Shown: piece by piece, positions 978 through 63,148 of the stretch
Layout: each line of letters begins with the position of its first letter
How positions within the stretch are numbered: the first letter of the stretch is position 1
Source of the DNA: an uncultured delta proteobacterium
GTDB taxonomy: Bacteria; Desulfobacterota; Binatia; UBA9968
DNA: 64,000 nt
Assembly: GCA_963804165.1 (NCBI GenBank)
Contig: CAWDPO010000012.1
Span: 1 to 64,000, forward strand
Direction of reading: 5' to 3'
The notes under the pieces: model-generated
The model's database searches: none
What the model saw: only the letters and a program-made list of their open reading frames with translations
Told to the model about the DNA's origin: nothing
Position numbers and translations under genes: made by a program

Positions 978-1010
978 ATCGAACTGAAGCGTCGTTCAGT
1001 TCAATGCTAG
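978..1010 (+). repeat. Cassette-boundary site, right half (collapsed hairpin)
   Basis: ATCGAACTGAAGCGTCGTTCAGTTCAATGCTAG. Confidence 0.75.
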
Positions 1011-1030
1011 GTGATGAAATGAGCTTGTCT

Positions 1031-1354
1031 TTATTTTACCGGGATGAATACAAAGCGGCGCGGCTGGGCGCCTACGTCTCGCGACATATGACCCTGACCC
1101 GAAGTGTCCTCTGCCAGTAGAATATCGCCAGGACCGAAACGCCGCTTGGTACCATCGCCGATCTCGATCTCAGTTTCACCTGACAGGTTGATCACATACT
1201 GCCGTCTAGGTGCCCGATGCCATTGATTAACAGTGTCGGGGGTACCCTCGCGGAACACAATACCATCGCCGGGCTGGAGCTTGCCTGTCTCCACCTCGGC
1301 GTCATCGAAATGCGACTGGCCGTCCGCTCCGGTGTAGAGTCGCGTGACTTTCAT
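1031..1354 (-). CDS. Small cupin-fold protein
   Basis: MKVTRLYTGADGQSHF...WHRAPRRQYVINLSG...GDILLAEDTSGQGH; start moved to the ATG at 1354. Confidence 0.85.
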   Translation of the reverse strand: MKVTRLYTGADGQSHFDDAEVETGKLQPGDGIVFREGTPDTVNQWHRAPRRQYVINLSGETEIEIGDGTKRRFGPGDILLAEDTSGQGHMSRDVGAQPRRFVFIPVK

Positions 1355-1547
1355 GGTTCGGCTCTTATAGTAAACCCGACGCTTAATAACAAGGCATTTT
1401 TCAAACACTAATGTCCCGTTACAATTGAAAAGCGAATTGGGTAGATTTTCCTAGCCACTGAGCCGAAAAAGAAACGATTAAAGAACCGTGATCGCGAAAT
1501 TGAAAAATGACCGACCAGTTGATGGAGGAAAATCACGCGGCGATGCC

Positions 1548-1580
1548 AGGATTGAACTGAATTCTCCATCAACTTAATCC
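1548..1580 (+). repeat. Cassette-boundary site, left half
   Basis: AGGATTGAACTGAATTCTCCATCAACTTAATCC. Confidence 0.75.
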
Positions 1581-1650
1581 CAAGCGAGCTTCTTGCTATT
1601 CGCCTTTTGCCCATGAGCTGCAGCGGCTGTGATTACGACTACCGCAATAC

Positions 1651-1741
1651 GATCTCGCCTTTTTGTTTTTGTACGCGAAAAATGCGGCTCTAGGTATAGA
1701 CCCCTCACCCCCGTCCCCCCTGGGCCGGTGGGTAGGCCGCC
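1651..1741 (+). repeat. ~90-bp direct repeat, copy 2
   Basis: Aligns with 866-955. Confidence 0.8.
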
Positions 1742-1856
1742 TCTTGTTTTCGTCTCAGTGAGCGTAATCTCAAATTGTCATTCGTGACGGTCGCGCTTTG
1801 TCACTTTCGCCTTGAGTGACATGCGGATGACTCCCAGCAATTACTTCTAATTCTAT

Positions 1857-1939
1857 TGTATCATTCTGATACATGTGGCATCGGGCTTGCTCTCAGTTCG
1901 GTTAGAGCATTGCGCAGAGCAATGTATCACTTTGACACA
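1857..1939. promoter_or_regulatory. Two palindromic operators upstream of ardC
   Basis: TGTATCA-TTC-TGATACA (1857-1873) and TGTATCA-CTT-TGACACA (1923-1939, abutting the AAGGAG RBS). Confidence 0.7.
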
Positions 1940-1950
1940 AGGAGAAACTG

Positions 1951-2835
1951 ATGAGCAATCAAGTTTACGGTTACATCACAGACAGAATAATGGAGGAGTT
2001 AGAACGCGGCTGCGTCCCGTGGCACAAGCCGTGGAAAACGAGCGCGGATGGTGTCCGTGTGCCCACAAGTTTCGTAAGCAAGAGGCCATATCGGGGCGTC
2101 AATACGTTTCTGCTCGCGCTTGCTCGTTTCAAGGCAGGCTACGATTCAAACTACTGGCTCACCTTCAAGCAGATCGAAGCCTTAGGCGGAAGCATCAAAG
2201 GGCAGCGTAGCGAAATGGTTGTCTTCTGGAAGCTATTGGAGAAGCCAGCCGCGAAGCCTACGGCAGAAAACGATACCGACTATATCCCGATGCTTCGGTA
2301 TTACCGAGTATTTAACCTGGACCAAGTGACTGGAATTGCTAAGCAGGCAGCCGGTGAGTTGCCGGCCTTCCAGCCCATCGCCGAAGCTGAAGCTATCGAG
2401 ACGAAATACCAAGCGCAAGTTGCAGTCACACACGGCGGCACACGTGCCTATTATCAGCCATCCACCGACTCCATCAATATGCCCGAGCGTCAGACATTCG
2501 ATGGCGCGGCGGAATACTATTCGACACTGTTTCACGAGTTTACCCACAGCACCGGGCATGAGTCACGATTGAATCGCTCTGGCATTACCGAGACTCATTA
2601 CTTTGGGGATGAAATCTACAGCAAAGAGGAACTTGTTGCCGAAATGGGCGCAGCAATGCTTTGCGGTGTTGTAGGTATTGAAAACAAAACGATCAAGAAC
2701 AGCGCCAGCTACATTCAATCGTGGCTTTCAAAGCTCCGCGATGACAAGAAGCTCGTTGTCCACGCGGCAGCAGCAGCACAGAAAGCTGCTGATTTCATTC
2801 TCGGCAGTCAAGCGCAGGCCACGGAAGCGGATTAG
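1951..2835 (+). CDS. ardC: ArdC-like antirestriction ssDNA-binding protein with zincin-like metallopeptidase domain
   Basis: VPWHKPW, YRGVN, WLTFKQ, VFNLDQ, HEFTHSTGH (HExxH), YSKEELVAE. Confidence 0.9.
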   Translation: MSNQVYGYITDRIMEELERGCVPWHKPWKTSADGVRVPTSFVSKRPYRGVNTFLLALARFKAGYDSNYWLTFKQIEALGGSIKGQRSEMVVFWKLLEKPAAKPTAENDTDYIPMLRYYRVFNLDQVTGIAKQAAGELPAFQPIAEAEAIETKYQAQVAVTHGGTRAYYQPSTDSINMPERQTFDGAAEYYSTLFHEFTHSTGHESRLNRSGITETHYFGDEIYSKEELVAEMGAAMLCGVVGIENKTIKNSASYIQSWLSKLRDDKKLVVHAAAAAQKAADFILGSQAQATEAD

Positions 2836-2836
2836 C

Positions 2837-2866: not shown

Positions 2867-2874
2867 CGGGCACT

Positions 2875-3051: not shown

Positions 3052-3233
3052 TCGAGCCCTCAAAAAGACACGCTTGCCGACACCCCTGAAAAACTGCTCT
3101 CTGAAACAGACAAATCACGGAGTGAAATGCAGGTATGAGAAACCTACAATGACAGTCACAACTCAGTCACAGGGTCTGAGATTAGACCGTGAGCACTGAC
3201 AGTTACAGGGCGGACGCTAGATTTGCAATGTAA

Positions 3234-3250
3234 CGTCGATCAGTTCAATC
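3234..3250 (+). repeat. Cassette-boundary site, right half
   Basis: CGTCGATCAGTTCAATC, identical to the 3' part of 58046-58119. Confidence 0.7.
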
Positions 3251-3339: not shown

Positions 3340-4329
3340 ATGAGGCGACCATTGAGGAAAACTGCGCTGGTATCAATCCTGTTTGCAGGAGCATTTCTCG
3401 CCGCTGCAGTCACCGTCGAGGCGCAGCAGCCGAAGGTCCACCGAGTCGGTGTCATTACGGCAGGCGGCTCATGGTTCGAGACAATTGACGGGCTTCGGGT
3501 CGGACTCAAGAAGTTGGGGCTTGAAGAGACGAAACATTTTACTCTGGTAATCCGAGATACCAAGGGCAACGCAAAGGCGGCCGAGGAGGCGGCGAAGAAT
3601 CTCGAACAAGAGAAAGTCAACCTGATCTATACAACTCAAACCTCCATCACCGTCCTAGCAAAGCGGGCGACGGCAGACATTCCCATCGTTTTCTGTGCTG
3701 GAGCCGACCCGGTTGATCTCGGGCTAGTGGAGAGCTTCGCAAGACCGGGGGGAAGACTTACAGGCGTCTTCAACCGGGTCACCGATCTGACTGGGAAGCG
3801 TCTGGAAATTCTGAAAGAGATTGTCCCAAAGCTCCGCCGCGTAGTGACATTCTATAACCCCAGTAGTCCTGTTTCTGCCGAGTCCGCCAAGTTGGTTCGA
3901 GAGACTGCGGGACAGATGGGAATCCAGTTTGTCGAGCGCCATGTCGCTTCCGTCGAGGAACTTCAGGCGAGTCTGCGAGCGCTCAGGGCCGGGGAAGTCG
4001 ATGCCGTCTTTGAAGTGTCAGACGCCCTGGTGAATATCCAGGATCAATTGATCATCGACATGGCAAGGGGCAAGAGGTTGGCGACGATGTTTATCAGCCA
4101 CAGTTCTGTCGTCAACGGAGGTCTCGCCAGCTACAGCGTGAGCCGCCACGAAATCGGCCGTCTGTCGGCGAAGTACGTCCAGCGCATTCTTACTGGAGTT
4201 AAGCCTAAGGACTTGCCGGTAGAGGGGGTCGATAAGATCGATCTGATCATCAATCTGAAAACCGCGAAGCAGATCGGTCTGACGATTCCGCAGAAGGTGC
4301 TGGGGCGGGCGGATAAGGTGATCAAATAA
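3340..4329 (+). CDS. ABC transporter substrate-binding protein (ABC_sub_bind type)
   Basis: Signal peptide, DPVDLGLVESFARPGGRLTG, GKRLEILKE, INLKTAKQIGLTIP..VL.RADKVIK. Confidence 0.9.
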   Translation: MRRPLRKTALVSILFAGAFLAAAVTVEAQQPKVHRVGVITAGGSWFETIDGLRVGLKKLGLEETKHFTLVIRDTKGNAKAAEEAAKNLEQEKVNLIYTTQTSITVLAKRATADIPIVFCAGADPVDLGLVESFARPGGRLTGVFNRVTDLTGKRLEILKEIVPKLRRVVTFYNPSSPVSAESAKLVRETAGQMGIQFVERHVASVEELQASLRALRAGEVDAVFEVSDALVNIQDQLIIDMARGKRLATMFISHSSVVNGGLASYSVSRHEIGRLSAKYVQRILTGVKPKDLPVEGVDKIDLIINLKTAKQIGLTIPQKVLGRADKVIK

Positions 4330-4497: not shown

Positions 4498-4545
<48 letters not shown>

Positions 4546-4607: not shown

Positions 4608-4630
4608 CAGGATTGAACGATTTCTCCGTC
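4608..4630 (+). repeat. Cassette-boundary site, left half (degenerate)
   Basis: CAGGATTGAACGATTTCTCCGTC. Confidence 0.55.
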
Positions 4631-5098
4631 TGTTCTTTTCTAACGCTTTTCACATTCTCGTTCTAACGCATCGCGCATCGGCTAGCTACCTAGTTCGCTC
4701 AACGTTGATTCTGTCACTTGTCGCGCGAGTGGAAGCATATACTGCCGAAACCACATTTCGGGTAGCATAAGCTTGCCTAAAATAACTCGTTAAATAACAT
4801 TCGGGCTCAACGCGGTGTTATCACAATTGAACGGTTCCCTAAGACGAAATGATTTCAAGCACTTCCAGAGTTGAGTGCGAAATGGCAAGACTATGGGTAA
4901 AGTTACAAATCTGAATTTACCTTTTGCCCAAGCTCATCGAGGATCTCGATTCTCACGGTAGTCTTGCGGATCTCCGCCTTTGGCGACCGTGTGTCAATCT
5001 GTCAAGCCAGACACGACGCCCCACGCACGGCGCTCACGGCGCTTTCGGCCTGCATGCGCCAGGCGCTGAGCTTGGCGAGAAGCAAGTGAGGTGAGTTT

Positions 5099-8262: not shown

Positions 8263-8287
8263 TGTCGGCATGCGCGAATGCCGGCGA

Positions 8288-48592: not shown

Positions 48593-48670
48593 CTAGGATT
48601 GAACTGTATTCTCCTTCAAAGCACAGTCCTACGTGAGAAAAAACTGACGCGTCGTTCAGTTCAATCCTAG
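48593..48670 (+). repeat. Complete cassette-boundary site (78 bp)
   Basis: CTAGGATTGAACTG...CAGTTCAATCCTAG, perfect 14-bp inverted repeat. Confidence 0.85.
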
Positions 48671-48872
48671 TGTGGCGTCTCAGAAGTTCGTTTAAAAAGT
48701 CCAAACGATGGCAGCCTCTGAAGTTGAACTCAAATCCCCCTTTGTCCCCCTTTTTCAAAGGGGGGATTTTCTCCGTGCGATTCTCACCCCTCTTTGCCAA
48801 AGAGGGGAAGGGGAGATTTTCCGACGGAATGACGCGAGAATTATGTCGCGAACTTCTGGGACAGGACACTAG
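48667..48872 (-). mobile_element. ~200-bp MITE, copy 2
   Basis: Reverse complement of 41772-41977; CTAG on both sides. Confidence 0.85.
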
Positions 48873-50331: not shown

Positions 50332-50447
50332 CTAGGTGAAAAGTGACAAAGGTAGTAAGATAGTAACGCTTTTGTTGTCCACGATGTAAGTTCACCCGCA
50401 TGCTTCTCCGATTTAGAAAAGCATCGACGAAGCCTTAGCTGGATGCC

Positions 50448-51752
50448 ATGAATCTCCTTGTCACCAACACCCGCAACTCCCAAGCTTACTCCATCATCCG
50501 AGCGTTGCGCCCCCACTGTGAGAAGCTCGTGGTGACGATGGAGGGAAAAAACCGGCTGATCGCAAGACTTTCCCACGCGGCTAATTCCCGCGTGGTGGAC
50601 AAGCGCTATTACGTCCCTTCGCCTGTAGAAGATTGGCGAGCGGGAATAATCCAGAAACAGAACACGGAGCGGGAAGAGGCTTATATCCAGGCGATTGTGA
50701 AGATCTGTGAACAGGAGAAAATCGATACCATTTTTCCCTCTTTCGATGCCCACGTCTATGTCTTTTCCAAGAACAAGGAGAGGTTCGAAAAGATGGGCGT
50801 GATGATCACGGTTCCAGACTACGAGGCGGTGATAACGCCGCTAGACAAGTATCGGACGATCCAAGCAGCGCAAGAGGTAGGGTTTCCTTGTCCAAGGACC
50901 TTCTTGCCGGAAAATGAGGAGGATCTCAGACGCATCGCTCATGAACTGAGTTTTCCCTTAATCATTAAGCGCCGATTTACCGCAGCGGGCCGAGGCATGC
51001 ACCTAGTCAAAGATCTCGCGGAACTCTCAGACAGGGTAAAACTAAACGAAGGAAACCAAGGCACCCTCCTAATACAGGAATACATCCCAGGCAGGGTTAC
51101 CGAAAGCATTGCTATTACACTGGACAAAAAGGGCGAGCTGAAGATGGTCTTCTGCAGGAAAGCTCTGTGTCGTTTAAGTCGGTTTCGCCGAATTAGGATG
51201 CTGGATTCGCCGCTATCACATCCCTACGCCGCGGATGCCGCGAGACTGATACAGACGCTGGGATGGTGGGGTGGGGTCACGGTTCAAACTGTGATTGACT
51301 CCCGCGACCACACCCCTAAGCTCATGGAGATCAACCCCAGAATTGGAGAGATACTTTGGCAAAGAATACAGGCGGGCATCAACGAGCCTTTGATGATTTT
51401 GAAAATCGCTCGCGGCGAAGAGGTCGAACCGATACGGGAATATCCCGTGGGGATAATATTTGCCGACCCAGTAGAGGACGCGGTGAGCGTTGCTATGGCC
51501 CTTATGGATATCCTGATCTATCGGCTCCGCATTGGGATTCTGGGCAAAGAGCCTATCGACCGGAGCATTCCGGCGATGTCCCTGCGGGAACTCATTCAAT
51601 CTCTAAGGCAGACCTATTTCTCTGACCGTCATAGGGTTTCCAGTCTGTATACGAAGTATTTTTTTCAGGACCCCTTCGTATCGATCATTTGGTGGTTTCA
51701 AATCATGGCCAATCGATGGATACAGAACCGCCCAAGAGACCTTGGGCAGTAA
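50448..51752 (+). CDS. ATP-grasp domain protein
   Basis: DKY.T, FPLIIK, LIQEYIPG, LMEINPR. Confidence 0.88.
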   Translation: MNLLVTNTRNSQAYSIIRALRPHCEKLVVTMEGKNRLIARLSHAANSRVVDKRYYVPSPVEDWRAGIIQKQNTEREEAYIQAIVKICEQEKIDTIFPSFDAHVYVFSKNKERFEKMGVMITVPDYEAVITPLDKYRTIQAAQEVGFPCPRTFLPENEEDLRRIAHELSFPLIIKRRFTAAGRGMHLVKDLAELSDRVKLNEGNQGTLLIQEYIPGRVTESIAITLDKKGELKMVFCRKALCRLSRFRRIRMLDSPLSHPYAADAARLIQTLGWWGGVTVQTVIDSRDHTPKLMEINPRIGEILWQRIQAGINEPLMILKIARGEEVEPIREYPVGIIFADPVEDAVSVAMALMDILIYRLRIGILGKEPIDRSIPAMSLRELIQSLRQTYFSDRHRVSSLYTKYFFQDPFVSIIWWFQIMANRWIQNRPRDLGQ

Positions 51753-51873
51753 CAATTCGGCGCAGAGATAGCTGAGTTTGGGGATTGAAATGAGACAGAC
51801 ACGACTGGCTCGGTCCAGTGATGGTTAACGCCGCTTAGGCTTCAGCACTAGTCTTCTTTGCGATTTTCAAGTG

Positions 51874-51928
51874 TAGGATCGAACTGTATTCTCCTTCTAA
51901 CGGCAGGTCTTCGATAACTGCATGAAGC
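51874..51928 (+). repeat. Cassette-boundary site, left half
   Basis: TAGGATCGAACTGTATTCTCCTTC...CATGAAGC. Confidence 0.7.
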
Positions 51929-52242
51929 CTTAGGCGATACTATAAGGGTTCGAAGCAGAAAAGCGCGGAAACAATTTATCCGGGTCGGACCAAGCTATCT
52001 CCTTGCCACACATGCAGAGGATGAGCTTTTGAAGCATCGGCTACATGCCCAAATATTTTTCTGAAATTCTTTGATGCAAAATTGCACTGCCTTTTGAATT
52101 TCCGCCTTTAGCTGAATGCCGCCATTCTCAAGCAGCTTCTCATAAGGAAAATTTGGAATCTGGAGTGTCTGGCATACTCCGGCACGCACTTTCGGCCAAT
52201 ATCTTACCGCTTTCGGTAGCGGGTGCCGCTTACCTACCTCAC

Positions 52243-52271
52243 TTGACACTGTGACACGCCGTGATTAAGTT
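52243..52271 (+). promoter_or_regulatory. Putative sigma70 promoter of hsp20
   Basis: TTGACA-N17-TAAGTT. Confidence 0.55.
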
Positions 52272-52312
52272 CCCGCTATGTTAAAGAAAAGGTTTAAAAA
52301 GGAGAGCTAATT

Positions 52313-52759
52313 ATGGAACTAGTAAGATGGGATCAAGTGGAGGGGGTAAACAGAATTCAGTCCCGAATCAATGAGCTATTCGAAGACACGTTGGGGCGGA
52401 CACGGGCGCAACAGGGTGCTACCACTGGAGTCTGGTATCCTCCCGTAGACATTCTTGAAAGTAAGGATTCGTATATTATTCGCGCCGAGCTGCCCGGGAT
52501 GAGAAACGAGGACCTCAAAACGGAAGTCAACGAAGGGATGTTGACCCTCAGTGGCGAGAGAAAGTTTGAAGAGCCGGCCAATGGGGTCGAGTACCACCGG
52601 GTCGAGCGCGTTGCAGGTAAATTTTCTCGATCCTTTTATCTGCCGCAAACGGTGAAGCAAGATAGTATCAAAGCGACCTATCGCGATGGAATACTTGAGG
52701 TACAAGTTCCCAAGGCCGAAGAGGCCAAGCCAAGACAGATCGCTATAAGCCTGAACTGA
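52313..52759 (+). CDS. Hsp20/alpha-crystallin small heat shock protein
   Basis: W.PPVDI.E, AELPG, LTLSGER, F.RSF.LP, A.Y.DGILEV.VPK. Confidence 0.95.
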   Translation: MELVRWDQVEGVNRIQSRINELFEDTLGRTRAQQGATTGVWYPPVDILESKDSYIIRAELPGMRNEDLKTEVNEGMLTLSGERKFEEPANGVEYHRVERVAGKFSRSFYLPQTVKQDSIKATYRDGILEVQVPKAEEAKPRQIAISLN

Positions 52760-52788
52760 TTCATCACAAGCCGGCAAACAGCAACGCA

Positions 52789-52821
52789 AAGGGGAAAGCG
52801 CCAGCTTTCCCCCTTGGGTTT
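52789..52821 (+). terminator. Intrinsic terminator
   Basis: GGGGAAAGC-GCCA-GCTTTCCCC followed by a T-rich tail. Confidence 0.6.
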
Positions 52822-53189
52822 CTCATTACACCGTCAAACAACACGTAGCCTGAGTGACGAAGATTAGCAAAAAACATCTCGGATCGACTTCATTCTTTTT
52901 CATGACCGTGGTGAGCAGCGCCAAGGAATTGGCTACCCCTGACCGAGGGCCATGAGCATGTCGAGCAAGAAGTTTAGCGCGGGCCAGGCCCCGGTAACTC
53001 CCTCTTTGGAGGATTCAGGGACGTAGTTGACTAGCTGGAATGACTTCTTCCGAGGCTCTTTGAGGTCGCCGATGTGGAGACCCCAAGCTGCCGCGCTACC
53101 TCGGCTAGAGTCGTTCCGTAGTTCTCAACCAATTTGCGTGAAACCGCTGCTCTCACCGCCGGAATCCTGATTTCCCCCCGACTCATGGG

Positions 53190-53336
53190 TGAGTTAGCCC
53201 CGGTTTGACGGACACCTTAGATAAGGGACAAATAACCTGAAGGGGGTGTTCGATGACCAAGCGGAAGAAATACACATCAGAGTTCAAGCGAGAAGCAGTG
53301 CGGCTGATGGAAAGTTCGGAGAAGCCATCGTCTGAA
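53190..53336 (+). mobile_element. IS3-family left-end remnant
   Basis: IRL TGAGTTAGCCCCGGTTTGACGGACACC; truncated orfA MTKRKKYTSEFKREAVRLM from 53253. Confidence 0.75.
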
Positions 53337-53546
53337 GGCGGCCGCCTGTTTCATCGCATTCGAACCGTGGAAGCAACTTGAGCGGTATCGATTCAAGGGG
53401 GACCTAAAGAAGCTAAAACTGTCGTTGAATGAATCGGTTCTGCTGCAGAGCGCCGGTGGACTGTAAGGCGACTCAAGTGTCATCAAAGGACTTGATTCCC
53501 AATATTCTATCAGCGCATGGAATAGAAAAAAGCAGGAGAAAACAAA

Positions 53547-53804
53547 ATGGATTTCGAAAAAGCAAAGCTGAATCCCGCAGCCGTTTTTAAGACCCCTGAA
53601 GAGATCGTTTCGAGCCAAGAATTGTCGCGCAAACAAAAACTTGAAATCCTTCGGCGATGGGAACAGGACGCGATGTCGATGGAAGTCGCCGAGGAAGAAG
53701 GCATGCCCGGCCCGCAACCCAAATTGCTCCAGCCGATTCGCGCCGCTCTGCACGGCCTCGACTATTGGCCGGATACCGAGCACTCGAGTCCCAGCAAAGC
53801 CTGA
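53547..53804 (+). CDS. Hypothetical protein
   Basis: RBS GGAG; P..VF..PEE....LS..QK.EILRRWE.DA...VAEEEGM. Confidence 0.75.
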   Translation: MDFEKAKLNPAAVFKTPEEIVSSQELSRKQKLEILRRWEQDAMSMEVAEEEGMPGPQPKLLQPIRAALHGLDYWPDTEHSSPSKA

Positions 53805-53878
53805 TGAGTCGCGATGAACTAACCCACTCGGTTCAACGCTGAGGACCGGGACACGGTAAATTAGAAAAGGATTCCTCG

Positions 53879-54088
53879 ATGAGATCTACGAAATCAATCG
53901 GCGCACTCGTCATTTTATTCGCCTCGTTTATTGGATGCACCGCAGCTCCCGACCGTATTCTAAGGAACAAGGCGACGATAATCGCTGTCACATGAAAATC
54001 GAGACTTACGGCGATCCCAAAATGCCAACCGAACGAGAAGTTGTTGATTATTACGGGCCGTGTGATGAACGGCCTGCGAAAAGATGAG
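53879..54088 (+). pseudogene. Frameshifted copy of small lipoprotein 14687-14899
   Basis: Alignable over its full length; small deletion after PDRIL. Confidence 0.75.
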
Positions 54089-54143
54089 ACCAAACCTGAG
54101 ACGCGTCGGCCTTTCAACGAAAAAGTAGCCTGTTCCCTTTTCA

Positions 54144-54400
54144 CCTAGTCCTTAATTCAATTCGCGCCACCGCGTCGCACAGGCACAGAGTCCGCGATCT
54201 GCACACATCGGACATGGCTCTATTATTCTTCGGTGATCAGTCAACTTCAGGGCTTACACAAGGGACACACCATTTCTCTTCGTGTTCACGGTGGCCCACG
54301 CGCTGATTTGCGGTATTCCACTCCGCTCATTTGGCACGCAGCTTTGACTCCTGCGCTGGCGCCCTGCCCTGTCAACCGAGCTATTCCGGCTAGTTAACAA
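54144..54400 (-). repeat. Diverged duplicate of 47505-47762 (5' end and upstream region of the DTW gene)
   Basis: Direct alignment by eye, several indels. Confidence 0.8.
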
Positions 54401-54775
54401 CGCCCTCAACTGGGCAACTAGGTCCGCTGGGTATCTGCGCGAGCAGCGCGATATTTCTTTTCAAGACTGTCCCGTATTGGACAGCAAGCCCTACCGAGTC
54501 AGCGTAGCATAAGACAGTTTAAATGTCCGCGCGGTCAAGGACGATCTCCGGCTCGCGACACCTCAGGGCTGTATAAATGCCGGGCAATATTGAAAAGGAC
54601 AAGACAGACGGTTTCACAAAGACATGACCTTATTAACAACGCGGCACGATGCCGACATGAGACAATCGCTTGGCGGTTCGTCTCGGTGAAGGAAAGGAGC
54701 ACGGTAATAAGTGGAAAAATCGATCAGATCAAAGAGGCAGCGGTTGCGCCATCCATTGTGACAGGAGGACGGACA

Positions 54776-55372
54776 ACGAAACCACGACTACTGGCGCTGC
54801 TCCCGCTCTGCGCGGGGCTGTTGGTGGCGGTGGCGTGCACGGGGCCAGCGGGTCCGGCGGGTCCGACGGGGATGACGGGGCGCCAGGGCTCCACCGGGAT
54901 GACGGGCGTACAGGGCTCTACCGGCATGACCGGCGTGCAGGGCTCGGCTGGGGTAACGGGCGTACAGGGCCCGGCAGGAATCACAGGGGCCCAGGGCGCG
55001 CCGGCGTCGTCGCCGCAGCCGAGGGTTCACTGGACGTTGGTGAAGGAGTTCATGTTCGACTTTGACAGGTCGGACATCCGGTATTCGGAGTCGAGAAAGC
55101 CCGCCGAGGTCGCGGCCTACATGAGCCAGAACCCGTCCGTGCGGCTCGGGCTCGCCGGCTACACGGATAGGCAGAGCACCGATCAGTACAATCAGCCGCT
55201 GAGCCAGCGCCGGGTCGCGACCGTTCGTGACGCGCTGATTCAGGCGGGGGTGGCGGCGGACCGGATCGAGACCGGCACGTTCGGTACGGATCGGTTCATG
55301 TGTAATTCGTCCACCGAGCAGTGTTCGCAGCGCGAGGGGCGAGTCGAAGTGCTGGTCCGCGCCAGCAGCTAG
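54776..55372 (+). CDS. OmpA-family lipoprotein with collagen-like Gly-X-Y repeats
   Basis: Lipobox AVAC, 27-bp repeats (GSTGMTGVQ), FDFD.S, G.TD....YN..LSQRR; start uncertain (ACG after AGGAGG, or 54590/54758). Confidence 0.8.
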
Positions 55373-55553
55373 CACCCGCGGTCGGGGATCTCCTTCGCGT
55401 CCTGTACGCGGAGGAGATCTCAGGTGCCGGGCTTCATCGGCCAAGGTCCACCAAGCGTCATTGCTGCCGTGCTCATAGACATAGGAAAGATGATTGGTGC
55501 TGGCCTGCATATTTGACTGTTGAGTGTGTCGGGAAGTGTGGGAGTAACAGACT

Positions 55554-56084
55554 ATGGGAACTATTGCTAAGCGACTTCTTATAGCCTTTGTAATACCACT
55601 TGTCCTTGCCGGATGCGTGTCTGGTGAGGACGAGAACCAAGAGACTAAGAAGATCGCCGAGAAAGTAAAACGACAGGCCGAACTTTCCGAAAAAGCTGAG
55701 GGCAGTCAGGATATGGTGAAGGACGAGGTTACCGTCCGAAAGGGCGAGAAGGGTCAACCGATTATCGAACAGGTCGGAGAAGCCTCATCTTACGGCCCAG
55801 GTTTCCACGGAAAGAAGACTGCCACCGGCGAAAAATTTAACCAAAATGATCGAACTGCGGCCCATCCGACCCTACCTATGGGAACGCAGGCAACTGTAAC
55901 AAACCTCAAGACTGGAAACTCCGTCGATGTCAAGATTAACGACCGGGGTCCCTACGTCAAAGGGCGTGACATAGATCTTTCAAAACGTGCAGCTAAAGAA
56001 TTGGGTATTACTAAGGAAGGTGTCGCTGCTGTGAAAATTGAGGCAGAAATGGCCCCCGCTGACAAAAGCAAGGAGAAGAAATAG
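55554..56084 (+). CDS. rlpA: RlpA-family lytic transglycosylase lipoprotein
   Basis: LAGC, G.AS.YG..FHGKKTA.GE, TAAHPTLP, INDRGP...GR.IDLS. Confidence 0.88.
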   Translation: MGTIAKRLLIAFVIPLVLAGCVSGEDENQETKKIAEKVKRQAELSEKAEGSQDMVKDEVTVRKGEKGQPIIEQVGEASSYGPGFHGKKTATGEKFNQNDRTAAHPTLPMGTQATVTNLKTGNSVDVKINDRGPYVKGRDIDLSKRAAKELGITKEGVAAVKIEAEMAPADKSKEKK

Positions 56085-56697
56085 CCGGGACAGGCCGAAG
56101 CATGCCTCCGCACGTTTTCCCAAGCGAATACCTTTTCAGCGGTTGCTTTGGTGCCCGTTTCAAGCACTCGCGTATAGTCGCCACCTGCCGTCCATCTAGC
56201 CGACTTTCCAACTGCTCTGACCACCGAATCTCTTCATCCACAGGTGAACGATCCACAAGCTGCCTTCTACGCGCACTCGACCATGGCCACTCGTGCACCG
56301 TCTCCGACAAGCCGGCACGGACCGGATTCTGTAAAACGTAACGTAAGGCAGTGATCAAGTGTTCATCACGCTGAACTGCAAAGCTCTTAAAGCGCCCCTG
56401 CCAAACATGTCCGCTGCTTCCATAATGTTTGTGATAACGACGCACGTGGCTCGTCAGCAGCCACTGCATGAACTGACTCAACGCGGTTTGGTGAGCAGGT
56501 TCGACAACGAGGTGAAAGTGATTCGGCATCAGGCAGTAGGCATAGATGCTTATGGAAAATTTAGCGCAATACTTCTCCAAGTGCTCGAGGTAGGCTTTAT
56601 AGTCGGCCTCGGCACGGAACGTCTGGCGTTGCTGATTGCCCCGAACTATGACGTGATAGAGACGGCCTGGCGCAAATACTCTTGGACGGCGTGCCAT
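56011..56697 (-). mobile_element. REP-associated tyrosine transposase (RAYT, Y1 HUH); native C-terminus probably lost near 56160
   Basis: MARRPR, YHVIVRGN, YCLMPNHFHL, GHVWQGRFKS, YVLQNPVRAG, WPWSS. Confidence 0.88.
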
Positions 56698-57014
56698 GGA
56701 CAGCGCAGTATCGGAAACCGCGCATCGCTGTCACCCTGGTTATCCGGGTATTGGACTAAGGTCCAATATAAAGCTTCTTTTTGTTCCAATAGATTTGTCC
56801 GTAAAGAAGATCCTTGTGGATTAATCAGGCCGACCAGTAATTGTCGCTGCCTAACGGCGGCTCACTTAATAGGTAGCTCTCAGAAATCGTAAAAAACGCA
56901 TACGCCAAACAAAGGAGACCAAGAACCTGTACCCGCCCCTGTTGTTACTGACATCTTCAAAATGGGCGCTGGCGTTTCAAACCGGTTGGAGTCATAAATT
57001 CTAGAGCGCTGCTC

Positions 57015-57974
57015 ATGGCTTCGACCAAGGCAATTAACCCCGGTGGAGGGGTCGAAATGGAAGCGAAGAAAACAGTTCATATCACTTGGGAGGACGCCCA
57101 TCGGGCAGAGACGGAGCGAGACAAGGCGAGACAGACATGCTGCCGATCCATACCGCCAAATCGATTGAAACTTACCACCGTTTACGATTCTAGAGACCTC
57201 CGTAGACTAAAAGCTTCGGCGTTGCGTCTCTGGGACGTGACGTTTAACCACAGGGTTGGGGCATCGGGCTATAAGGGGAAAACCCTTTTTAGTCCTGCAG
57301 GGGTCGAGAGAATCACAGAGTGTTCAAAAGGGTTACCCCGGCTCGTCAACGCAATTTGCGACAACGCGGCGTCGACGGAAACAAACGTGGCAGGGACAAA
57401 TTCTCAACCGTTGGAGAACCGACATAAAGCCGAGGCGGAGGAAGCCCAACGAACGCAATTCGGAGAGGATGAGCTTCGAGAGATTTGTTTTAAGCGTGGC
57501 TTGACGAAATCGGCAGTCGGGATATTCCTGGGGGTCATTTTACTGGCCGGTGTCGGGACGGTGTCCTATTCGCAACAGAGCAAAAGCTATTTGTCCCATC
57601 TAGCTGTGAAGTGGGGAGCTATCGCTCAGCGCGCCGTACGCCATACTTCTGACCTAGAGGTGATGGTTGAGAGCTCGAAGGCGCAACCCGTCGAGCCGCG
57701 ACTCTCTTCAACAAATCAGGAACCTGTTCAACCTGACGATCGAGAAAGCACGGCGACAAGACCGCGGGACTATTTGGGTAACTTTGAAGTCGTCGACGAT
57801 TCCTTCGTTCGCGATAACCCTCAACCGAATGCCACCGTCATCGCGACTCTCCCGCCCGGTACGCAGGTTAGGGTAGAAAGCAAAACAGGAGAGTATTTCC
57901 GTATCCGCTCATTGCACGATCCGGAGGTTATCGGTTATGTGCATAAAGAAGACGCCTTCTTTCAACCGCATTAA
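57015..57974 (+). CDS. Chimeric or degenerate protein: ExeA-like AAA lid fragment, TM helix and SH3-like domain
   Basis: FSP.GVERI...SKGLPRLVNAICDNA; VRDNP..NA.VIATLPPGTQV...GYV. Confidence 0.6.
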   Translation: MASTKAINPGGGVEMEAKKTVHITWEDAHRAETERDKARQTCCRSIPPNRLKLTTVYDSRDLRRLKASALRLWDVTFNHRVGASGYKGKTLFSPAGVERITECSKGLPRLVNAICDNAASTETNVAGTNSQPLENRHKAEAEEAQRTQFGEDELREICFKRGLTKSAVGIFLGVILLAGVGTVSYSQQSKSYLSHLAVKWGAIAQRAVRHTSDLEVMVESSKAQPVEPRLSSTNQEPVQPDDRESTATRPRDYLGNFEVVDDSFVRDNPQPNATVIATLPPGTQVRVESKTGEYFRIRSLHDPEVIGYVHKEDAFFQPH

Positions 57975-58045
57975 ATGAGGATACATTTCCGTCGAGTTGA
58001 CGGTTAAAAGGGAGAAATGTTTTTGTTGGTTAATTTTGCGCTTAT

Positions 58046-58119
58046 TGAGATTGAACTGAATTCTCCTTCTGCTTAATCCCCCGCCAGATTTCATTGACGC
58101 GTCGATCAGTTCAATCTCA
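58046..58119 (+). repeat. Complete cassette-boundary site (74 bp)
   Basis: TGAGATTGAACTGA...TCAGTTCAATCTCA, perfect 14-bp inverted repeat. Confidence 0.85.
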
Positions 58120-58603
58120 GGCTGAATCTGGTCGAATGCCTTCCATCGTAAATCTGACCTTTCTCCACCTGTGCTCTACGATCCGGGTGACCCAGCAAAG
58201 ATAGCCGAGTTTAAGGAGACACAGGCCGCAGCTCAAGGGTTACTTTGGGAGTCCAGCGGTCAGTGCCGTGAGCGCGCAGAGCGCAAACCCACGATGTGAT
58301 AGTCTTGATGAAATTCACCAAGCATGGCAGTACCTCCTTTCCAAAAATTGCCAACGCCTGACGAATATCTGTTGTCTAAATGCTCCGAGTCTATCCGTAA
58401 TCATGGCTTTCTAGTTGGTCAAGACCTGAAAGCCTAGAAGTGGCAACATGTTGAACGTTGCCGGTCTCCATGAAACCTTCCGACATACCGTATCCGCAAG
58501 CTCGCCACATTTGACAGTTTAATATAGGCGGGGTTATACCTGCGCCATTCACCGCAACAGAGACTCGCCGCGACTTTACGTGAGATTAGCCAAGGAGAGC
58601 CAA

Positions 58604-59121
58604 ATGCCTTACGCCGAATCTTTGAGAGCAATCGGTCAGTCCCTGGAAATGGTGCATATTGAGAGCTTTAGGCTGGAAAAAGAAGGCGATTCTTATGTAG
58701 TGCGGAGCGAGTCTCTAACACCGGCCCGGCTATGGATCTTGAGCAATAGTCTCGCCGAGGACGTTAGGGACTCTCCACCCCTGACCCGAAAACCACCCAG
58801 CTCACTGTGGGTGAGGGATGGTTCTGTTACCGTCCTCCTGATATTGCAAGGCTTGACGCCCAGGAACGGAGAAAAAGACAAAATCACGGTGTCACACAAA
58901 TGCCTCAGAAGACGCTAGCTCAGCTTTTACGTACTCTAGGTGAGTACCTGGATACAAAGGAGGCGACCACTTTTCACATCTCGTGTGCTCCTGATTCGAT
59001 GTCGGTTGATTATCAAATGCCGGCCGGCATCTCTGAGCGCAAAGATTTTACCGTCGAGCGACTCCACAAACTCGCTTTGTACTCGAGATTCCGGCGGGTG
59101 CAGCCAACCGATTCTCACTGA
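58604..59121 (+). pseudogene. Frameshifted hypothetical protein with an internal repeat (LRAIGQ.LE / LRTLGE.LD)
   Basis: RBS AAGGAG; two overlapping ORFs joined by a shift near the C run at ~58775-58782. Confidence 0.55.
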
Positions 59122-59190
59122 AGAAATTTGTGTCCGCGAAGAAACTCAAACTTAGCGCGTAATCGATCGCGGTAAGCGTGCGGCCTAACG

Positions 59191-59216
59191 CTGAAATCGA
59201 ACTGAATTTTCCATCA
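59191..59216 (+). repeat. Cassette-boundary site, left half
   Basis: CTGAAATCGAACTGAATTTTCCATCA. Confidence 0.6.
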
Positions 59217-59429
59217 AACCAATTGTCCTTGCTTTCACGCAACTCTGTGACTGCTGGCGCCGCTCTTTGTTTCCCACTTTGAACTTACGTGGAGGGAAAA
59301 ACCATTGTGCATCGATCATTGCGACCAGTAACTGGCGACCGGTTTGATTCCGAAAGGCAGCAACTGGCTCATCGTGAGTCTTGCTCCGCAATTTTCCAAG
59401 TCGACACTACGCTGACGCAAATTTCGGAA

Positions 59430-60059
59430 CTATTTCTTAGGATGAAGCTGTTCTCCAGGCTTCTGGTCGACTTCCGTCTCATCCCAGGCGGTTTTTCCCT
59501 CCAAACTTTCCACGTTGAACTGGTAGTCGTAGACTAGCGAACCGCCATAAATAGCTCCATAGGAAACAAGCAGGCCGGCAACGATGGACAAGATCATTGT
59601 GAAAAGCCGCGCATATCCATCACTGAATTGGAGGAGACGAATAATAATGTTGATGATCACGATTACAGTGACAGTGAGCATCACCGTCATATGCCAGTTT
59701 GCAGTGCGCCACACCTGTGTGTGTTTCGCCGTGCCAAGAATGCCGGTCGAGTGATCCCTGTCCATGCCCTTCCACCAATCCCAGAAGCCGGTGAGGGCCG
59801 TCCCTACGGAAACGATTGCACCCGCGACGATGATGTAGGTGGCGGCGACAAAGAAATTACGGGCTGCGCTGGGGTACTCTACTGGCTCGTCATAAGCTTT
59901 ATAATACGAGATGATGTCGAACAATGCTGTGAGAACATAACAGACGATAGGAAAATCAGTGAGAGGCGGGTGCAGGGGCTTACCTGCCCAACCGCGCAAT
60001 CCCCTGGACTCCCGCCCTTTAAGGGTCATTGACGGCTTAATTGAAAAAAGCCTGGTCAT
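59430..60059 (-). CDS. DUF2231 membrane protein
   Basis: PLHPPLTDFPI, TG.WDW, GG.LVY. Confidence 0.85.
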   Translation of the reverse strand: MTRLFSIKPSMTLKGRESRGLRGWAGKPLHPPLTDFPIVCYVLTALFDIISYYKAYDEPVEYPSAARNFFVAATYIIVAGAIVSVGTALTGFWDWWKGMDRDHSTGILGTAKHTQVWRTANWHMTVMLTVTVIVIINIIIRLLQFSDGYARLFTMILSIVAGLLVSYGAIYGGSLVYDYQFNVESLEGKTAWDETEVDQKPGEQLHPKK

Positions 60060-60119
60060 GTGTTTCTCCCCGGGCCACCGGATCATCCGGCCGGACGCCC
60101 GGATGAACCCACAACTCGA

Positions 60120-61688
60120 TTAGGTGTCGCTTCCCATCACGCGGGTTAGCAACGCATCGGGAACCCTGGTGAGATTTGCGGCTGCATCCTTTAAGTCGCG
60201 ATGCTCGACAGCGCGCGATAGCAACTCGTTTTTAGTCGGGCCTTGCTTTTTGCCGAGGAACGGCTTGGCGATCAGGTGAAAGACATCACGTAGTGGCATG
60301 TAACGCATGAAGCGGAAAAGCAGCCGGAAGGTCTGGATCGGATAGTGGGTCAGCTTGTACAAAAAAAGTCGCCTCAACCCAGAATTTCGCTCAGCATTGA
60401 TTAGCGGACCGGGTAGACAGGTCGGATCAATCTCTGAGCACTTGAAGTACTTGTACCAATCAGCTGCATCGTTGACCAGACCCCGCGCCACGTACTCTTT
60501 CCACAGAGGAGTTCCCCGGTACACACACAGCCGGTTGAAACCGAACGTGTCCAGCCGCAGCTTCGCTGCGAAGTCAAACGTGGCACGTATATCGTGAACC
60601 GTCTCGTCCGGAGATCCAACAACAAAGAAGCCGTGCACGATGTCGATACCAGCCTGCTTAGCGGTATCCACCGCATTCTTAGTCTGCTCTAGGGTTTGCT
60701 CCTTCTTCAGCCGGTCGAGGACTTTCTGGCTACCGCTCTCAACTCCAAACATCACAGTGCGGCAGTGGGCCTTGGCCATTGCCGGGAACAGGTGTTGCGC
60801 CGTCGAATCAACCCGTCCCTCACAGCCCCATTGGATAGTGACCCCGCTCTCATTAATACCTTTGCAGATCGCCTCAATACGCTTAGGTTGCAAGAGGAAG
60901 TGGTCATCGACAAAGTAAACGGCACCGTATCCCAAGGCCTGTAGCTGTTTTAATTCGCCAACAACATGCTGCGGGGTGCGGGCGCGCCACTTGCCCTCGT
61001 TAAATATAGGAATATCGCAAAAAACACAGGGCCAAGGACAACCGCGCGATGTCTGCATCGTCGTGAAGCGCTCCATAGATAAGACGGCCGGCACATCGAG
61101 CGGCATCGATTCAATGTAATCCAACGGCAAGCTCTCGCGGTCAGGAAAGGGCCACTGGTCGAGATCTCGGTCCAACACCCGATTTGGGTTGCTGACAGGG
61201 CGGCCATCCTGGGTCCATGTGAGACCTGCCACATCGGCAGGATCTTCCAAGCGTTCGACAAGATCGAGAATGAGTTGCTCACCATCCCCTCGACAAACGA
61301 AGTCCACTTCGGGGCACTGGAGCTTGACGAGTTCGGCGTTCAGTGTGGCGAAAACACCACCGAAGGCAAGCGGCACACGGGAGTCAGCCGCCCGTATCTG
61401 ACGCGCAAGGAGCTTGGCATACGGATAACTCGTCGTGCTTAAAAAACTTAAGCCAACGAGGTCGGGTTTTTGCCTGCGGATTTCTTCGATAATGACATCA
61501 TTGGGCGTCTCAGGATTGGCTTGATCGAACATGATGCTATCGTGGCCTTCGCGTTTGAGCACAGCCGAGAGCGACATGATACCAATCGGTGGAAACCCCA
61601 TAACGCGAATCCTGCCGTTCTTGGCGCGAGTTGCTGCAGGCAACGCGTAAAACTGAGGGTCGCGAATATGAATCAAAACGATTCGCAT
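60120..61688 (-). CDS. B12-binding radical SAM protein
   Basis: N-terminal B12 domain; TSRGCPWPCVFC (CxxxCxxC), GVESGSQ. Confidence 0.93.
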   Translation of the reverse strand: MRIVLIHIRDPQFYALPAATRAKNGRIRVMGFPPIGIMSLSAVLKREGHDSIMFDQANPETPNDVIIEEIRRQKPDLVGLSFLSTTSYPYAKLLARQIRAADSRVPLAFGGVFATLNAELVKLQCPEVDFVCRGDGEQLILDLVERLEDPADVAGLTWTQDGRPVSNPNRVLDRDLDQWPFPDRESLPLDYIESMPLDVPAVLSMERFTTMQTSRGCPWPCVFCDIPIFNEGKWRARTPQHVVGELKQLQALGYGAVYFVDDHFLLQPKRIEAICKGINESGVTIQWGCEGRVDSTAQHLFPAMAKAHCRTVMFGVESGSQKVLDRLKKEQTLEQTKNAVDTAKQAGIDIVHGFFVVGSPDETVHDIRATFDFAAKLRLDTFGFNRLCVYRGTPLWKEYVARGLVNDAADWYKYFKCSEIDPTCLPGPLINAERNSGLRRLFLYKLTHYPIQTFRLLFRFMRYMPLRDVFHLIAKPFLGKKQGPTKNELLSRAVEHRDLKDAAANLTRVPDALLTRVMGSDT

Positions 61689-61876
61689 ATCGTATACACT
61701 CTTTCATTGTGATCGCCTCCGCGCAAGACCGACCAAGGGCGCATCTCTCGGGCATTGTGGCCAAGCAGCGGGAATCTTTTTACAACCCCTTCGACGCCAT
61801 CATAGTCGGCTACAGATAGACCGGTTTTGGTTTTGAGGGTTTCGGTCGGTCATGATAGTCGGAGTCAAAGGGAGAA

Positions 61877-61908
61877 TTTGAATTGAAGCGTCGTTCAGTT
61901 CAATCCTA
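61877..61908 (+). repeat. Cassette-boundary site, right half (collapsed hairpin)
   Basis: TTGAATTGAAGCGTCGTTCAGTTCAATCCTA. Confidence 0.75.
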
Positions 61909-62005
61909 CGCTGAAATTAGCCTTTTCTCGCTCGATGAATCTGGTTCTCTCTACTGCCGTAAATTGCACTTTTCATCGCTTGGCTCCGCGTGGTATGTAG
62001 CGGCC

Positions 62006-62989
62006 ATGAAAAAAGCGGGCTGGGCGTCGGCGTTGGTTGCCGTGATACTGCTTGCTGTTGCAGTTATAGCCGAGGCGCAGCAGGCGAAGGTCCACCGCAT
62101 AGGAGTTCTCACGCCACGCTCTCCGTCGGATAGCGCGCCCTGGCATCGGGCATTTCGAGAAGGTCTCCAGGGCCTCGGATGGGTAGACGGAAAGAACATC
62201 GCGATCGAATACCGATACGCCCAAGGCAATCGCGACCGCCTCCCTGACCTCGCAGCCGAGATCCTCCATCTGAAGGTTGAAGTCGTTGTTGTCGTGAGTG
62301 TCCACGCGGCCCGTGCTATTCAGCAGATCAACAAGGCAATCCCTATCGTAATGGCGTCCGCCGCTGATCCTGTCCAGTTGGGCTTGGTTGCCAGTCTTGC
62401 TCGGCCTGGCACCAACATCACGGGCTTATCGGAAATTACCCCAGAGATGGCCGGAAAGCGGCTGGAGCTGCTCAAGGAAATGGTCCCCAAGCTTTCCCGT
62501 GTGGCCACGCTTTGGGATCCAGGAAACGACGCCTCGGCGCTCAGTTGGAAAGAGGTCCAGTCCCCTGCTCGGCAGCTCGGTCTGTATCTGCATTCGCTGG
62601 AGGCACGGAGCCCCAAGGATTTTGACAAAGCGTTCGAAGACGCTACCAGGGCACGCGCTGGCGCCATTGCCGTCATGCCGGCTCAGTTGTTCGGCGCGAA
62701 TTTAAAACGGATCGCGGATCTTGCGGCAAAGAGCCGCTTGCCGTCAATATGGCATCTCTCGGAATTTGTGGACTCAGGCGGTCTCGCTGCATATGGGCCA
62801 GACCGTGCCGACCAGTTCCGTCGCGCGGCGATCTACGTGGACAAGATATTGAAAGGCGCCAAGCCCGGGGACCTACCAGTGGAGCAGCCGAAGAAGTTCG
62901 AGTTCATCGTCAACCTGAAAACGGCAAAACAGATCGGCTTAACTATTCCGTCCAATGTATTGGCTAGAGCCGACAAAGTTATCCGATGA
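62006..62989 (+). CDS. ABC transporter substrate-binding protein, paralog of 3340-4329
   Basis: AEAQQ, IEYRYA, DPV..GLVASLARPG.NITG, LPVEQP.KFE...NLKTAKQIGL. Confidence 0.92.
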   Translation: MKKAGWASALVAVILLAVAVIAEAQQAKVHRIGVLTPRSPSDSAPWHRAFREGLQGLGWVDGKNIAIEYRYAQGNRDRLPDLAAEILHLKVEVVVVVSVHAARAIQQINKAIPIVMASAADPVQLGLVASLARPGTNITGLSEITPEMAGKRLELLKEMVPKLSRVATLWDPGNDASALSWKEVQSPARQLGLYLHSLEARSPKDFDKAFEDATRARAGAIAVMPAQLFGANLKRIADLAAKSRLPSIWHLSEFVDSGGLAAYGPDRADQFRRAAIYVDKILKGAKPGDLPVEQPKKFEFIVNLKTAKQIGLTIPSNVLARADKVIR

Positions 62990-62995
62990 CCGAAC

Positions 62996-63080
62996 AATCG
63001 AAAATCCAAAATCGAAAATCTAAAATGGTAGGGCGATTCCGCCGAATGTGCTGGCGAGGGCGGATAGAGTGATCAAATAA
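62996..63080 (+). pseudogene. Collapsed remnant of another SBP paralog
   Basis: AATCSAA heptamers followed by IPPNVLARADRVIK* (63036-63080). Confidence 0.65.
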
Positions 63081-63094
63081 CGACGCGGCAATCG

Positions 63095-63148
63095 CAGGAT
63101 TGGATTGAATTCTCCTTCAACGCAATCTCGCTGAAACACATTGACGTT
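63095..63148 (+). repeat. Cassette-boundary site, left half
   Basis: CAGGATTGGATTGAATTCTCCTTC...CATTGACG. Confidence 0.65.

Follow-up and report, generated by a model that had tools for sequence, protein, structure and literature searches.

The repeated sites of the window and their surroundings

The window analysed here comes from a Binatia assembly of 46 contigs and 7.5 Mb, rated 81% complete (genome G000; other G-numbered genomes are relatives in the same order), where it forms the initial 64 kb of contig C12. It carries genes of unrelated families placed between copies of a repeated site of about 75 bp, which we describe below as a putative border of mobile gene cassettes (Table 1). Two motifs of this site, a left one (L) and a right one (R), had been recognised in an original prediction made from the letters of the window, and both were searched by pattern. 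Five matches to L at up to three mismatches (1549, 48596, 51876, 58048 and 63097) and five to R (985, 3229, 48645, 58095 and 61884) were obtained, all on the + strand, with expectations of 0.00 and 0.01, respectively. The motifs of the ten co-oriented copies originally proposed are therefore real and far above chance, but the half-sites number 12, as L at 48596 and 58048 had been overlooked. These two stand around 27 nt upstream of the R motifs at 48645 and 58095, so the window contains two intact sites, and the proposed description of the repeat as a split site was abandoned. The L copies that had been placed at 4608 and 59191 are degenerate and both fail at three mismatches; the second was recovered by a profile (59186-59226) and the first was recognised by eye only.

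Five unrelated single-gene cargos had been proposed to lie between these motifs. Two PF04392 substrate-binding protein genes, an ATP-grasp gene and an open reading frame (ORF) without family were found in the corresponding intervals, the cupin-like gene scores under its cut-off, and the ATP-grasp interval also holds a DDE_5 transposase. The latter belongs to an insertion sequence (IS; 48674-50400) located directly 3' of the intact site at 48590-48673, whose end sequence is repeated on many G000 contigs. A tRNA stub suggested beside one of the binding-protein genes was not confirmed, as ARAGORN found no tRNA in the window.

A two-core palindromic site

The repeat is one imperfect palindrome of about 75 bp, and L and R are its outer arms, the outer ends of which are mutually reverse-complementary (GGATTGAACTG and CAGTTCAATCC). 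Full copies were aligned in two sets, one of 31 copies from G000 and another of 77 distinct copies from many genomes, and both gave the same order of elements: the outer left arm is followed by TTCTCC and a degenerate version of the right arm and then, after some variable bases, by a degenerate version of the left arm, GCGTCG and the outer right arm. A full site consists of two adjacent lox/dif-like cores, each with a 13-bp arm, a 6-bp spacer and a second 13-bp arm; core A is formed by a 13-bp arm, the spacer TTCTCC and a degenerate arm, and core B by a degenerate arm, the spacer GCGTCG and a 13-bp arm. The consensus of the left outer arm is GGATTGAACTGAA, with pairing that often extends around 10 bases more, and that of the right outer arm is TTCAGTTCAATCC. 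Apparent "half" copies are complete single cores, as at window 970-1012 (B) and C8:28302 (A), and the 13-6-13 layout was seen in these short forms and also in each of the two cores of full copies.

The outer arms, of which there are two matched left/right families, form an inverted repeat, while the inner arms pair together, allowing a single-strand or cruciform fold with an outer stem, a 6x6 internal loop made of the two unlike spacers, an inner stem and a tip loop (fold z-scores of sites from -2.5 to -5.4). In the 77-copy alignment 72.8% of the cells are paired in register, compared with 20-43% when the pairing is slid, with values of 82% for the outer helix and 60% for the inner one. Several inner pairs change on both sides (for instance UA 31 and AU 13, or AU 25, GC 17 and GU 16). 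No conserved unpaired single base (extrahelical base) was seen in the 77-copy alignment or in the folds, and the site matched no Rfam family at the gathering score.

Co-oriented arrays with diverse cargo

A scan of the genome with an nhmmer profile (E 0.01, non-overlapping copies counted), in line with the check proposed originally for co-orientation and cargo diversity, revealed 84 site copies, 44 of them intact (AB), 22 A-only and 18 B-only. Another copy was present within 10 kb for 73 of the 84, and all 56 neighbouring pairs (within 7 kb) were co-oriented. These copies form 16 arrays that together occupy 126 kb, around 1.7% of the assembly, and the G+C fraction of the array-bearing contigs is 0.53-0.54, compared with about 0.56 for the genome. 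The patterns AB...A-only and B-only...AB were seen as islands; strict A, B, A, B alternation along arrays was also considered, and fails in several of them. A pattern scan with four mismatches produced mostly noise and served only for the reading of flanks.

Between sites, 112 ORFs of at least 95 aa were detected, 80 co-oriented with the sites and 32 opposite to them, some of them surely spurious, and many end within tens of bases of the next site. Sixty are singletons and 26 are copies or fragments of the PF04392 substrate-binding protein; further cargo includes methyltransferases, GNAT, a TIR-methyltransferase fusion, TENA, acyl-CoA dehydrogenase, GDSL hydrolase, asparagine synthase, ATP-grasp, GAF and AurF-like proteins. 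In the fusion, encoded by a cassette at C5:13199-14872 (- strand), the methyltransferase is SAM-dependent.

About 91 loci for PF04392 binding proteins were found in G000 by tblastn, and 68 of them have no nearby site, which ruled out the site as a generic feature of these genes. The family is greatly expanded, with site-less tandem rows at C6:2-33463, C16:154849-173037, C37:120405-151644 and C38:1338-30092. Among the 58 A-bearing copies, around 23 directly follow the stop codon of a binding-protein gene, with the outer arm conserved (by eye), and a conserved binding-protein leader comes after many copies. Downstream of some sites, direct repeats GAGATAGGCYGC followed by TTGACA-like boxes were observed (C21:5560-5700, C15:25816-25900, C24:175700-175880 and L158:18985-19050), and these may be operators of the next cassette.

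Cassettes recur with breakpoints at the two spacers

Segments 96-99% identical are found in different G000 arrays with different neighbours. Single cassettes match at 85-95% on unrelated contigs of congeners, one copy in G085 ending at a site, and the 12 kb at 52000-64000 of the window showed no synteny among 30 genomes of the same genus. To locate the edges of similarity, four duplicate pairs were compared base by base, as were 17 additional informative pairs drawn from G000 and other genomes. The edge fell at the A spacer or at the junction of the B spacer with the right arm; in a few cases it lay at the left end of the left arm or within the inner region. Several left-identical pairs show more than 100 identical bases followed by a first mismatch inside the right arm. 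In the second pair a rare right-arm variant moves with the downstream cassette, which places the B breakpoint to the left of the arm, between GCGTCG and TT. As an independent check, matching contigs from soil metagenomes (four runs) stop at 58066 (three runs) and 59212 (another set of three), in both cases the last base of an A spacer; one match begins at 61888, where a B spacer starts, and others begin at 58107, inside the right arm. In public sequencing runs, the maximum share of words of window 57800-63400 found in any run was 0.17, and stretches left uncovered by contigs were not taken as evidence.

From these positions it follows that the upstream cassette keeps the left arm and TTCTCC, whereas the downstream one keeps GCGTCG and the right arm; the roughly 30 nt between the spacers vary independently and behave as a separate small module. 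The proposed polarity of the cargo, with R on its left and L on its right, thus holds, each cassette travelling with GCGTCG plus arm on the left and arm plus TTCTCC on the right. A single recombination core had also been proposed near TGA(A/C)GC, and this position falls on the left end of the B spacer, GCGTCG; however, there are two breakpoints, one per spacer. Palindrome half-sites can pass for attL/attR, which calls for caution in similar cases. In any case, the breakpoints at the two spacers and the recurrence of cassettes on unrelated contigs argue that these co-oriented copies are recombination sites bounding mobile, unrelated cargo, in agreement with the core of the original prediction.

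In relatives, the site encloses a gene for a Xer-like recombinase

The original prediction reported no tyrosine or serine recombinase in the window and named no enzyme. Consistently, no match to a tyrosine recombinase was found on the contig of the window, nor a cognate enzyme in the assembly; serine recombinases were not searched for. A candidate is provided by relatives and soil metagenomes, in which a conserved Xer-like tyrosine recombinase gene (around 301 aa) sits exactly between A and B cores, so that copies of the site do flank a recombinase. In locus L158 of G064 two such genes are present, both of them 307-codon ORFs with the domains Phage_integrase and SAM_1, and both framed by an A core on one side and a B core on the other. 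One strand of this locus reads, in order, intI, a rhodanese cassette carrying an ordinary attC, an A core and a TPR/FecR gene, then an A core, the first 307-codon ORF and a B core, and, after an O-methyltransferase gene, an A core, the second 307-codon ORF and a B core. The slot from one spacer to the other is occupied by the gene, with the degenerate inner arms retained and the stop codon lying within the inner left arm of B. A likewise nested gene, with one internal TGA, was found in G021 inside a 15-copy array. Among 34 metagenome loci with both gene ends, a B core follows the stop in 30 (by pattern; the other four look degenerate by eye), and an A core precedes the start in 21.

Over 100 clusters of homologues, 62-100% identical to this recombinase, were found in databases; most come from contigs of 1-5 kb and bear the source names XerC or XerD, and one homologue is labelled Candidatus Binatia. 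Scores of the protein are around 200 bits with the models of XerC, XerD and XerA, all of which have higher cut-offs, and 65 bits with that of the integron integrase (IntI); its nearest solved structure is that of XerD from E. coli. A recombinase gene framed so exactly by a repeated site usually encodes the enzyme for that site, and a 6-bp spacer suits Xer-type sites (dif). Because of this exact framing and of the 13-6-13 cores, a layout of the simple Xer/Cre kind, the nested protein is our favoured candidate for the cognate enzyme, by inference only. Just upstream of its start, a short hairpin CTCTCC...GGAGAG spans the ribosome-binding region (L158:15832-15873 and L146:3910-3955) and may limit translation of the recombinase.

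Tyrosine recombinases encoded inside G000 arrays were also considered as the enzyme and rejected, as their partners are IS91-family Y2 transposases and their identity to the nested recombinase is only around 30%. Such pairs of genes lie in or beside arrays at C5:2903-4929, C23:251854-254230, C23:259745-262121, C41, C37 and C10, and two copies on C23 begin inside a truncated site. GTTC, the target of IS91, is contained in the site.

Integron integrases and ordinary attC sites in the order

Occurrence across the order was tallied in 123 genomes, including the unpublished G005, G069 and G098, with IntI called by TIGR02249 above its cut-off (265 bits). The site motif was present in 61 genomes (58/89, 2/5 and 0/28 by family), while a reversed control pattern gave a single match in all of them, and IntI was called in 33. 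No integron integrase above the cut-off was found in G000, where the best match reached 104.9 bits, and none on the contig of the window. Out of 15 IntI loci fetched, only L158 of G064 had the site within about 10 kb. The remaining loci carry clear ordinary attC sites 3' of intI, in the same orientation and of the GCCTAAC...GTTAGGC type, from which our site differs, in line with the original statement that it is not a canonical attC. A home-made attC finder recovered the clear attCs near IntI but is insensitive, flagging nine of the 58 A-bearing G000 copies compared with around 20 by eye, and counts of ordinary attCs are accordingly rough. One upstream attC was examined by folding.

Upstream of intI in G023, tandem 9-bp GTTCAAnnn repeats occupy intergenic positions around a lexA-imuA-imuB-intI row (L145:14688-18106), and similar runs are present in G000 on C17, C24 and C30. 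The repeats of G023 were considered as possible binding repeats for IntI, a lead that yielded nothing.

Other features of the window

Two features are not listed in Table 1: a group II intron domain at 18036-18173 (- strand; RF02003, 108.8 bits with a cut-off of 49), which is the sole Rfam match in the window, and a gene for an ArdC-like anti-restriction/zincin protein at 1951-2835 (+ strand), of a type typical of conjugative elements.

Table 1. Site copies and the genes between them, in window coordinates.
Feature	Position	Strand	Evidence and remarks
B-only core (degenerate left arm, GCGTCG, right arm)	970-1012	+	nhmmer profile positions 44-86; fold with 8-bp stem and 6-nt loop
Cupin-like ORF, cargo, on the strand opposite to the sites	1031-1408	-	Pfam Cupin_2, 24.6 bits, under the cut-off of 27.2
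A-only core (left arm, TTCTCC, degenerate right arm)	1539-1588	+	nhmmer positions 2-51; exact L at 1549-1570
Degenerate B-type half-site upstream of binding-protein gene	3229-3250	+	Pattern with 2 mismatches; not reached by nhmmer at E 0.01
PF04392 ABC substrate-binding protein, cargo	3340-4329	+	Pfam, 183.5 bits
Degenerate A-type half-site	4608-4632	+	By eye only; missed by the 3-mismatch pattern and by nhmmer
Intact AB site; A spacer TTCTCC 48609-48614, B spacer GCGTCG 48649-48654	48590-48673	+	nhmmer positions 6-87, 67 bits; DNA fold -17.2 kcal/mol, z -5.4
DDE_5 transposase of IS, not cassette cargo	48935-50329	+	Pfam DDE_5, 298.7 bits
ATP-grasp enzyme, cargo	50448-51752	+	Pfam CPSase_L_D2, ATP-grasp_3
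A core and inner region; family similarity stops at TGAAGC, within the B spacer	51870-51930	+	nhmmer positions 6-36
Intact AB site; A spacer 58061-58066, B spacer 58099-58104	58045-58127	+	nhmmer positions 9-91, 72 bits
ORF without Pfam family, cargo	58580-58918	+	Cassette repeated at 70969-71793 of the same contig and on contig C20, 97% identical; 94% copy in relative G085 ending at a site
A-only core, spacer variant TTTTCC 59207-59212	59186-59226	+	nhmmer positions 4-44
Two genes between A-only and B-only core: DUF2231 membrane protein, B12-binding radical SAM enzyme	59430-61688	-	Pfam
B-only core, spacer GCGTCG 61888-61893	61878-61916	+	nhmmer positions 53-91
PF04392 ABC substrate-binding protein, cargo; true start probably later than 61883	61883-62989	+	Pfam, 179.7 bits
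A core, inner region and decayed B core without right arm	63089-63146	+	nhmmer positions 4-63

Discussion

On balance, we favour the explanation that the repeat is a composite, two-core site for site-specific recombination which borders mobile cassettes, with the nested Xer-like gene taken as the gene of its enzyme. A tyrosine recombinase would bind the arms and exchange strands within the 6-bp spacers, A recombining with A and B with B, on a substrate that could be either double-stranded or folded. Recombination between co-oriented sites would then excise the intervening DNA as a circle with one site, and this circle could re-enter at any other copy or look-alike core, giving rise to arrays and to the AB...A-only and B-only...AB islands. 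As the assembly has no nested recombinase, the G000 copies would have been moved in trans or would now be at rest.

Several observations weigh against this explanation. Regarding the fold, 40% of the inner-stem cells are unpaired in the 77 copies, and inner-stem covariation is modestly higher than in shuffles (0.146 vs 0.129, with 3 of 500 shuffles reaching 0.146). Regarding mobility, no circle junction or empty-site allele was seen, and the skip and go-back joints of soil contigs, which have short sides of 20-40 letters, can be explained by other copies or tandem paralogues just as by circles and were not counted as excision. Regarding the enzyme, an A core is not at its expected place in 13 of the 34 metagenome loci, where a different insert lies upstream; the recombinase is present at an identity of at least 66% in seven of the 123 genomes, compared with 61 for the site; and G000, with 44 exact motif matches, has no nested copy, in a fragmented assembly of the completeness given above, the other assemblies being fragmented too. 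Moreover, IntI matches at E <= 1e-60 occur in 10 of the 13 genomes with at least nine motif matches, and in around 20 of the 58 A-bearing G000 copies an ordinary attC ends upstream of the site, with an R' box (GTTARNN) that starts 11-12 nt before the left arm (by eye). This adjacency ties the sites to integron arrays and is not fully explained. Given the attC-like geometry of the site and the frequency of integrases in the lineage, IntI could be the enzyme.

The main rival built on these facts, which we consider unlikely although it is the strongest of the alternatives, is that of an unusual attC, the arrays then being clusters of attC sites without integron integrase (CALINs), with IntI from relatives, or perhaps from the unassembled 19% of the genome, recombining the folded strand between GCGTCG and TTCAG, and with the Xer-like gene as a cassette or passenger in the loop. 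The right-box consensus of attC is GTTRRRY, and GTTCAGT fits six of its seven positions, ACTGAAT fitting five of seven in the same comparison. Read as 7-nt boxes, the site has a 7-5-...-5-7 spacing and a right-side breakpoint between G and TT, and its organisation resembles integron arrays in many respects: an imperfect, co-oriented palindrome (60-140 bp) behind every promoterless-looking gene, an architecture of stem, unpaired centre, second stem and variable tip, diverse cargo, cassettes common to arrays and genomes, an IntI in the lineage and ordinary attCs in the same arrays. The order at G064, with intI, one ordinary cassette and then these sites on the same strand, also suits an attC, as do the integrases of the order and the attC ends upstream of the site copies. 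An attC is described as having paired outer boxes, two non-complementary spacers by which the centre is left unpaired, and an inner stem ending in a variable tip (PMC2727003); the fold of our site agrees with this geometry, and its boxes fit the consensus in part. Strand choice is described as set by two or three extrahelical bases in the R''-L'' arm (PMC2727003), and none is evident in the 77 copies. Furthermore, the arms measure at least 13 bp instead of the 7 bp of attC boxes, with pairing that extends past the crossover, and recombination is not confined to the G/TT position of an R' box, since breakpoints lie at the A spacer as well as at the B spacer/right-arm junction, unlike the normal integron pattern. 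A-only and B-only half-sites are frequent, the gene found nested in the site is Xer-like and lacks the IntI-specific domain, the IntI loci of relatives carry dissimilar attCs with the site near only one of 15, and G000 has no IntI above the cut-off. Because there is no adjacent IntI, there are no extrahelical bases and the breakpoints are on both sides, we file the site outside the integron family.

An improbable alternative is that of a selfish miniature palindrome similar to the repetitive extragenic palindrome doublets known as REPINs, with the Xer-like gene in the role of their RAYT enzyme, copies spreading intergenically with a preference for the sides of attCs and the genes in between being ordinary neighbours. 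The resemblance lies in the many copies of a short palindromic doublet, accompanied by rarer copies with an enzyme gene between the same ends, and the conserved matched families of outer arms and the fixed 11-12 nt offset from attC R' boxes (by eye) would suit target-specific insertion. However, RAYTs are HUH enzymes whereas the gene found here encodes a tyrosine recombinase, and REPINs bound no mobile cassettes and form no co-oriented arrays with internal breakpoints. In our case co-orientation in arrays is strict and mostly extends to the ORFs, similarity breaks at the internal spacers instead of at element ends, and single cassettes cross genomes with half-sites attached. Moreover, no filled/empty pair of a whole element and no target-site duplication were found among the duplicated segments and pairs examined, in a search that was not exhaustive across genomes. 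Finally, an RNA or transcription signal (terminator or leader) copied along with tandem duplications of PF04392 genes, suggested by the strong hairpin co-oriented with genes, the copies directly after binding-protein stops and the conserved leader, is highly improbable, as most binding-protein loci lack the site, many sites stand beside unrelated genes, no T-run follows the stem in the two intact window sites, no Rfam family matches, and the spacer breakpoints and the nested recombinase gene are left unexplained.

Returning to the two-core recombination site, the closest known kinds include, besides integron attC/CALIN arrays and REPIN-RAYT systems, Xer/dif sites with pdif modules and lox-type sites. 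It shares with Xer/dif and pdif modules a candidate enzyme of the Xer family, cores made of arm, 6-bp spacer and arm, and discrete site-bounded gene modules. The pdif sites of Acinetobacter plasmids alternate in orientation, have two different arms and use the host XerC/XerD, whereas in our case a single inverted repeat supplies both arms, co-orientation is general, two spacer types alternate and a putatively dedicated recombinase gene lies within the site. The Cre/loxP system has 13-bp inverted arms and an 8-bp spacer, and lox sites with different spacers are used in engineered cassette exchange; our site likewise has 13-bp inverted arms, a short asymmetric spacer and two spacer types flanking modules, a layout for two-crossover exchange, but it is natural and present in many copies, has a 6-bp spacer and a Xer-like candidate recombinase, and the incompatibility of A with B is in this case only presumed. 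IS elements of the IS1111-attC group and group IIC-attC introns show a similar orientation-specific, fixed-offset association with integron cassette junctions; these are insertion sequences and introns with their own DDE transposase or reverse transcriptase, and they bound no cassettes, unlike the site described here.

A bolder version, which we put forward as a tentative possibility, is that of a second cassette system parallel to integrons in soil Binatia, in which cores with two spacers bound modules and the slot between them holds the system's own Xer-like recombinase gene, cargo and recombinase gene being excised, inserted or swapped by A-A and B-B recombination. Nature would then have its own equivalent of recombinase-mediated cassette exchange. 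In such a system, the GTT-containing outer arm may also dock ordinary integron cassettes. As the outer arms fall into two matched families, we further speculate that a GTTAGC-like tip may belong to the palindrome itself and offer IntI a GTT for the insertion of ordinary cassettes. Such a system may not be independent of integrons, as bona fide integrases share the order.

To our knowledge, integrons are the only well-understood natural platform that stores and shuffles single-gene cassettes, and a literature search restricted to titles and the starts of abstracts returned no description of a cassette system like this one. If true, the system would be new in three ways, namely a two-core site, a Xer-family enzyme and the location of the enzyme gene inside the site. 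It would also supply genome engineering with a compact natural pair of sites with different spacers, together with their recombinase. Cassette platforms would then have arisen more than once, or have diversified far beyond IntI/attC, and gene-content variation in an abundant, uncultured soil phylum would be explained.

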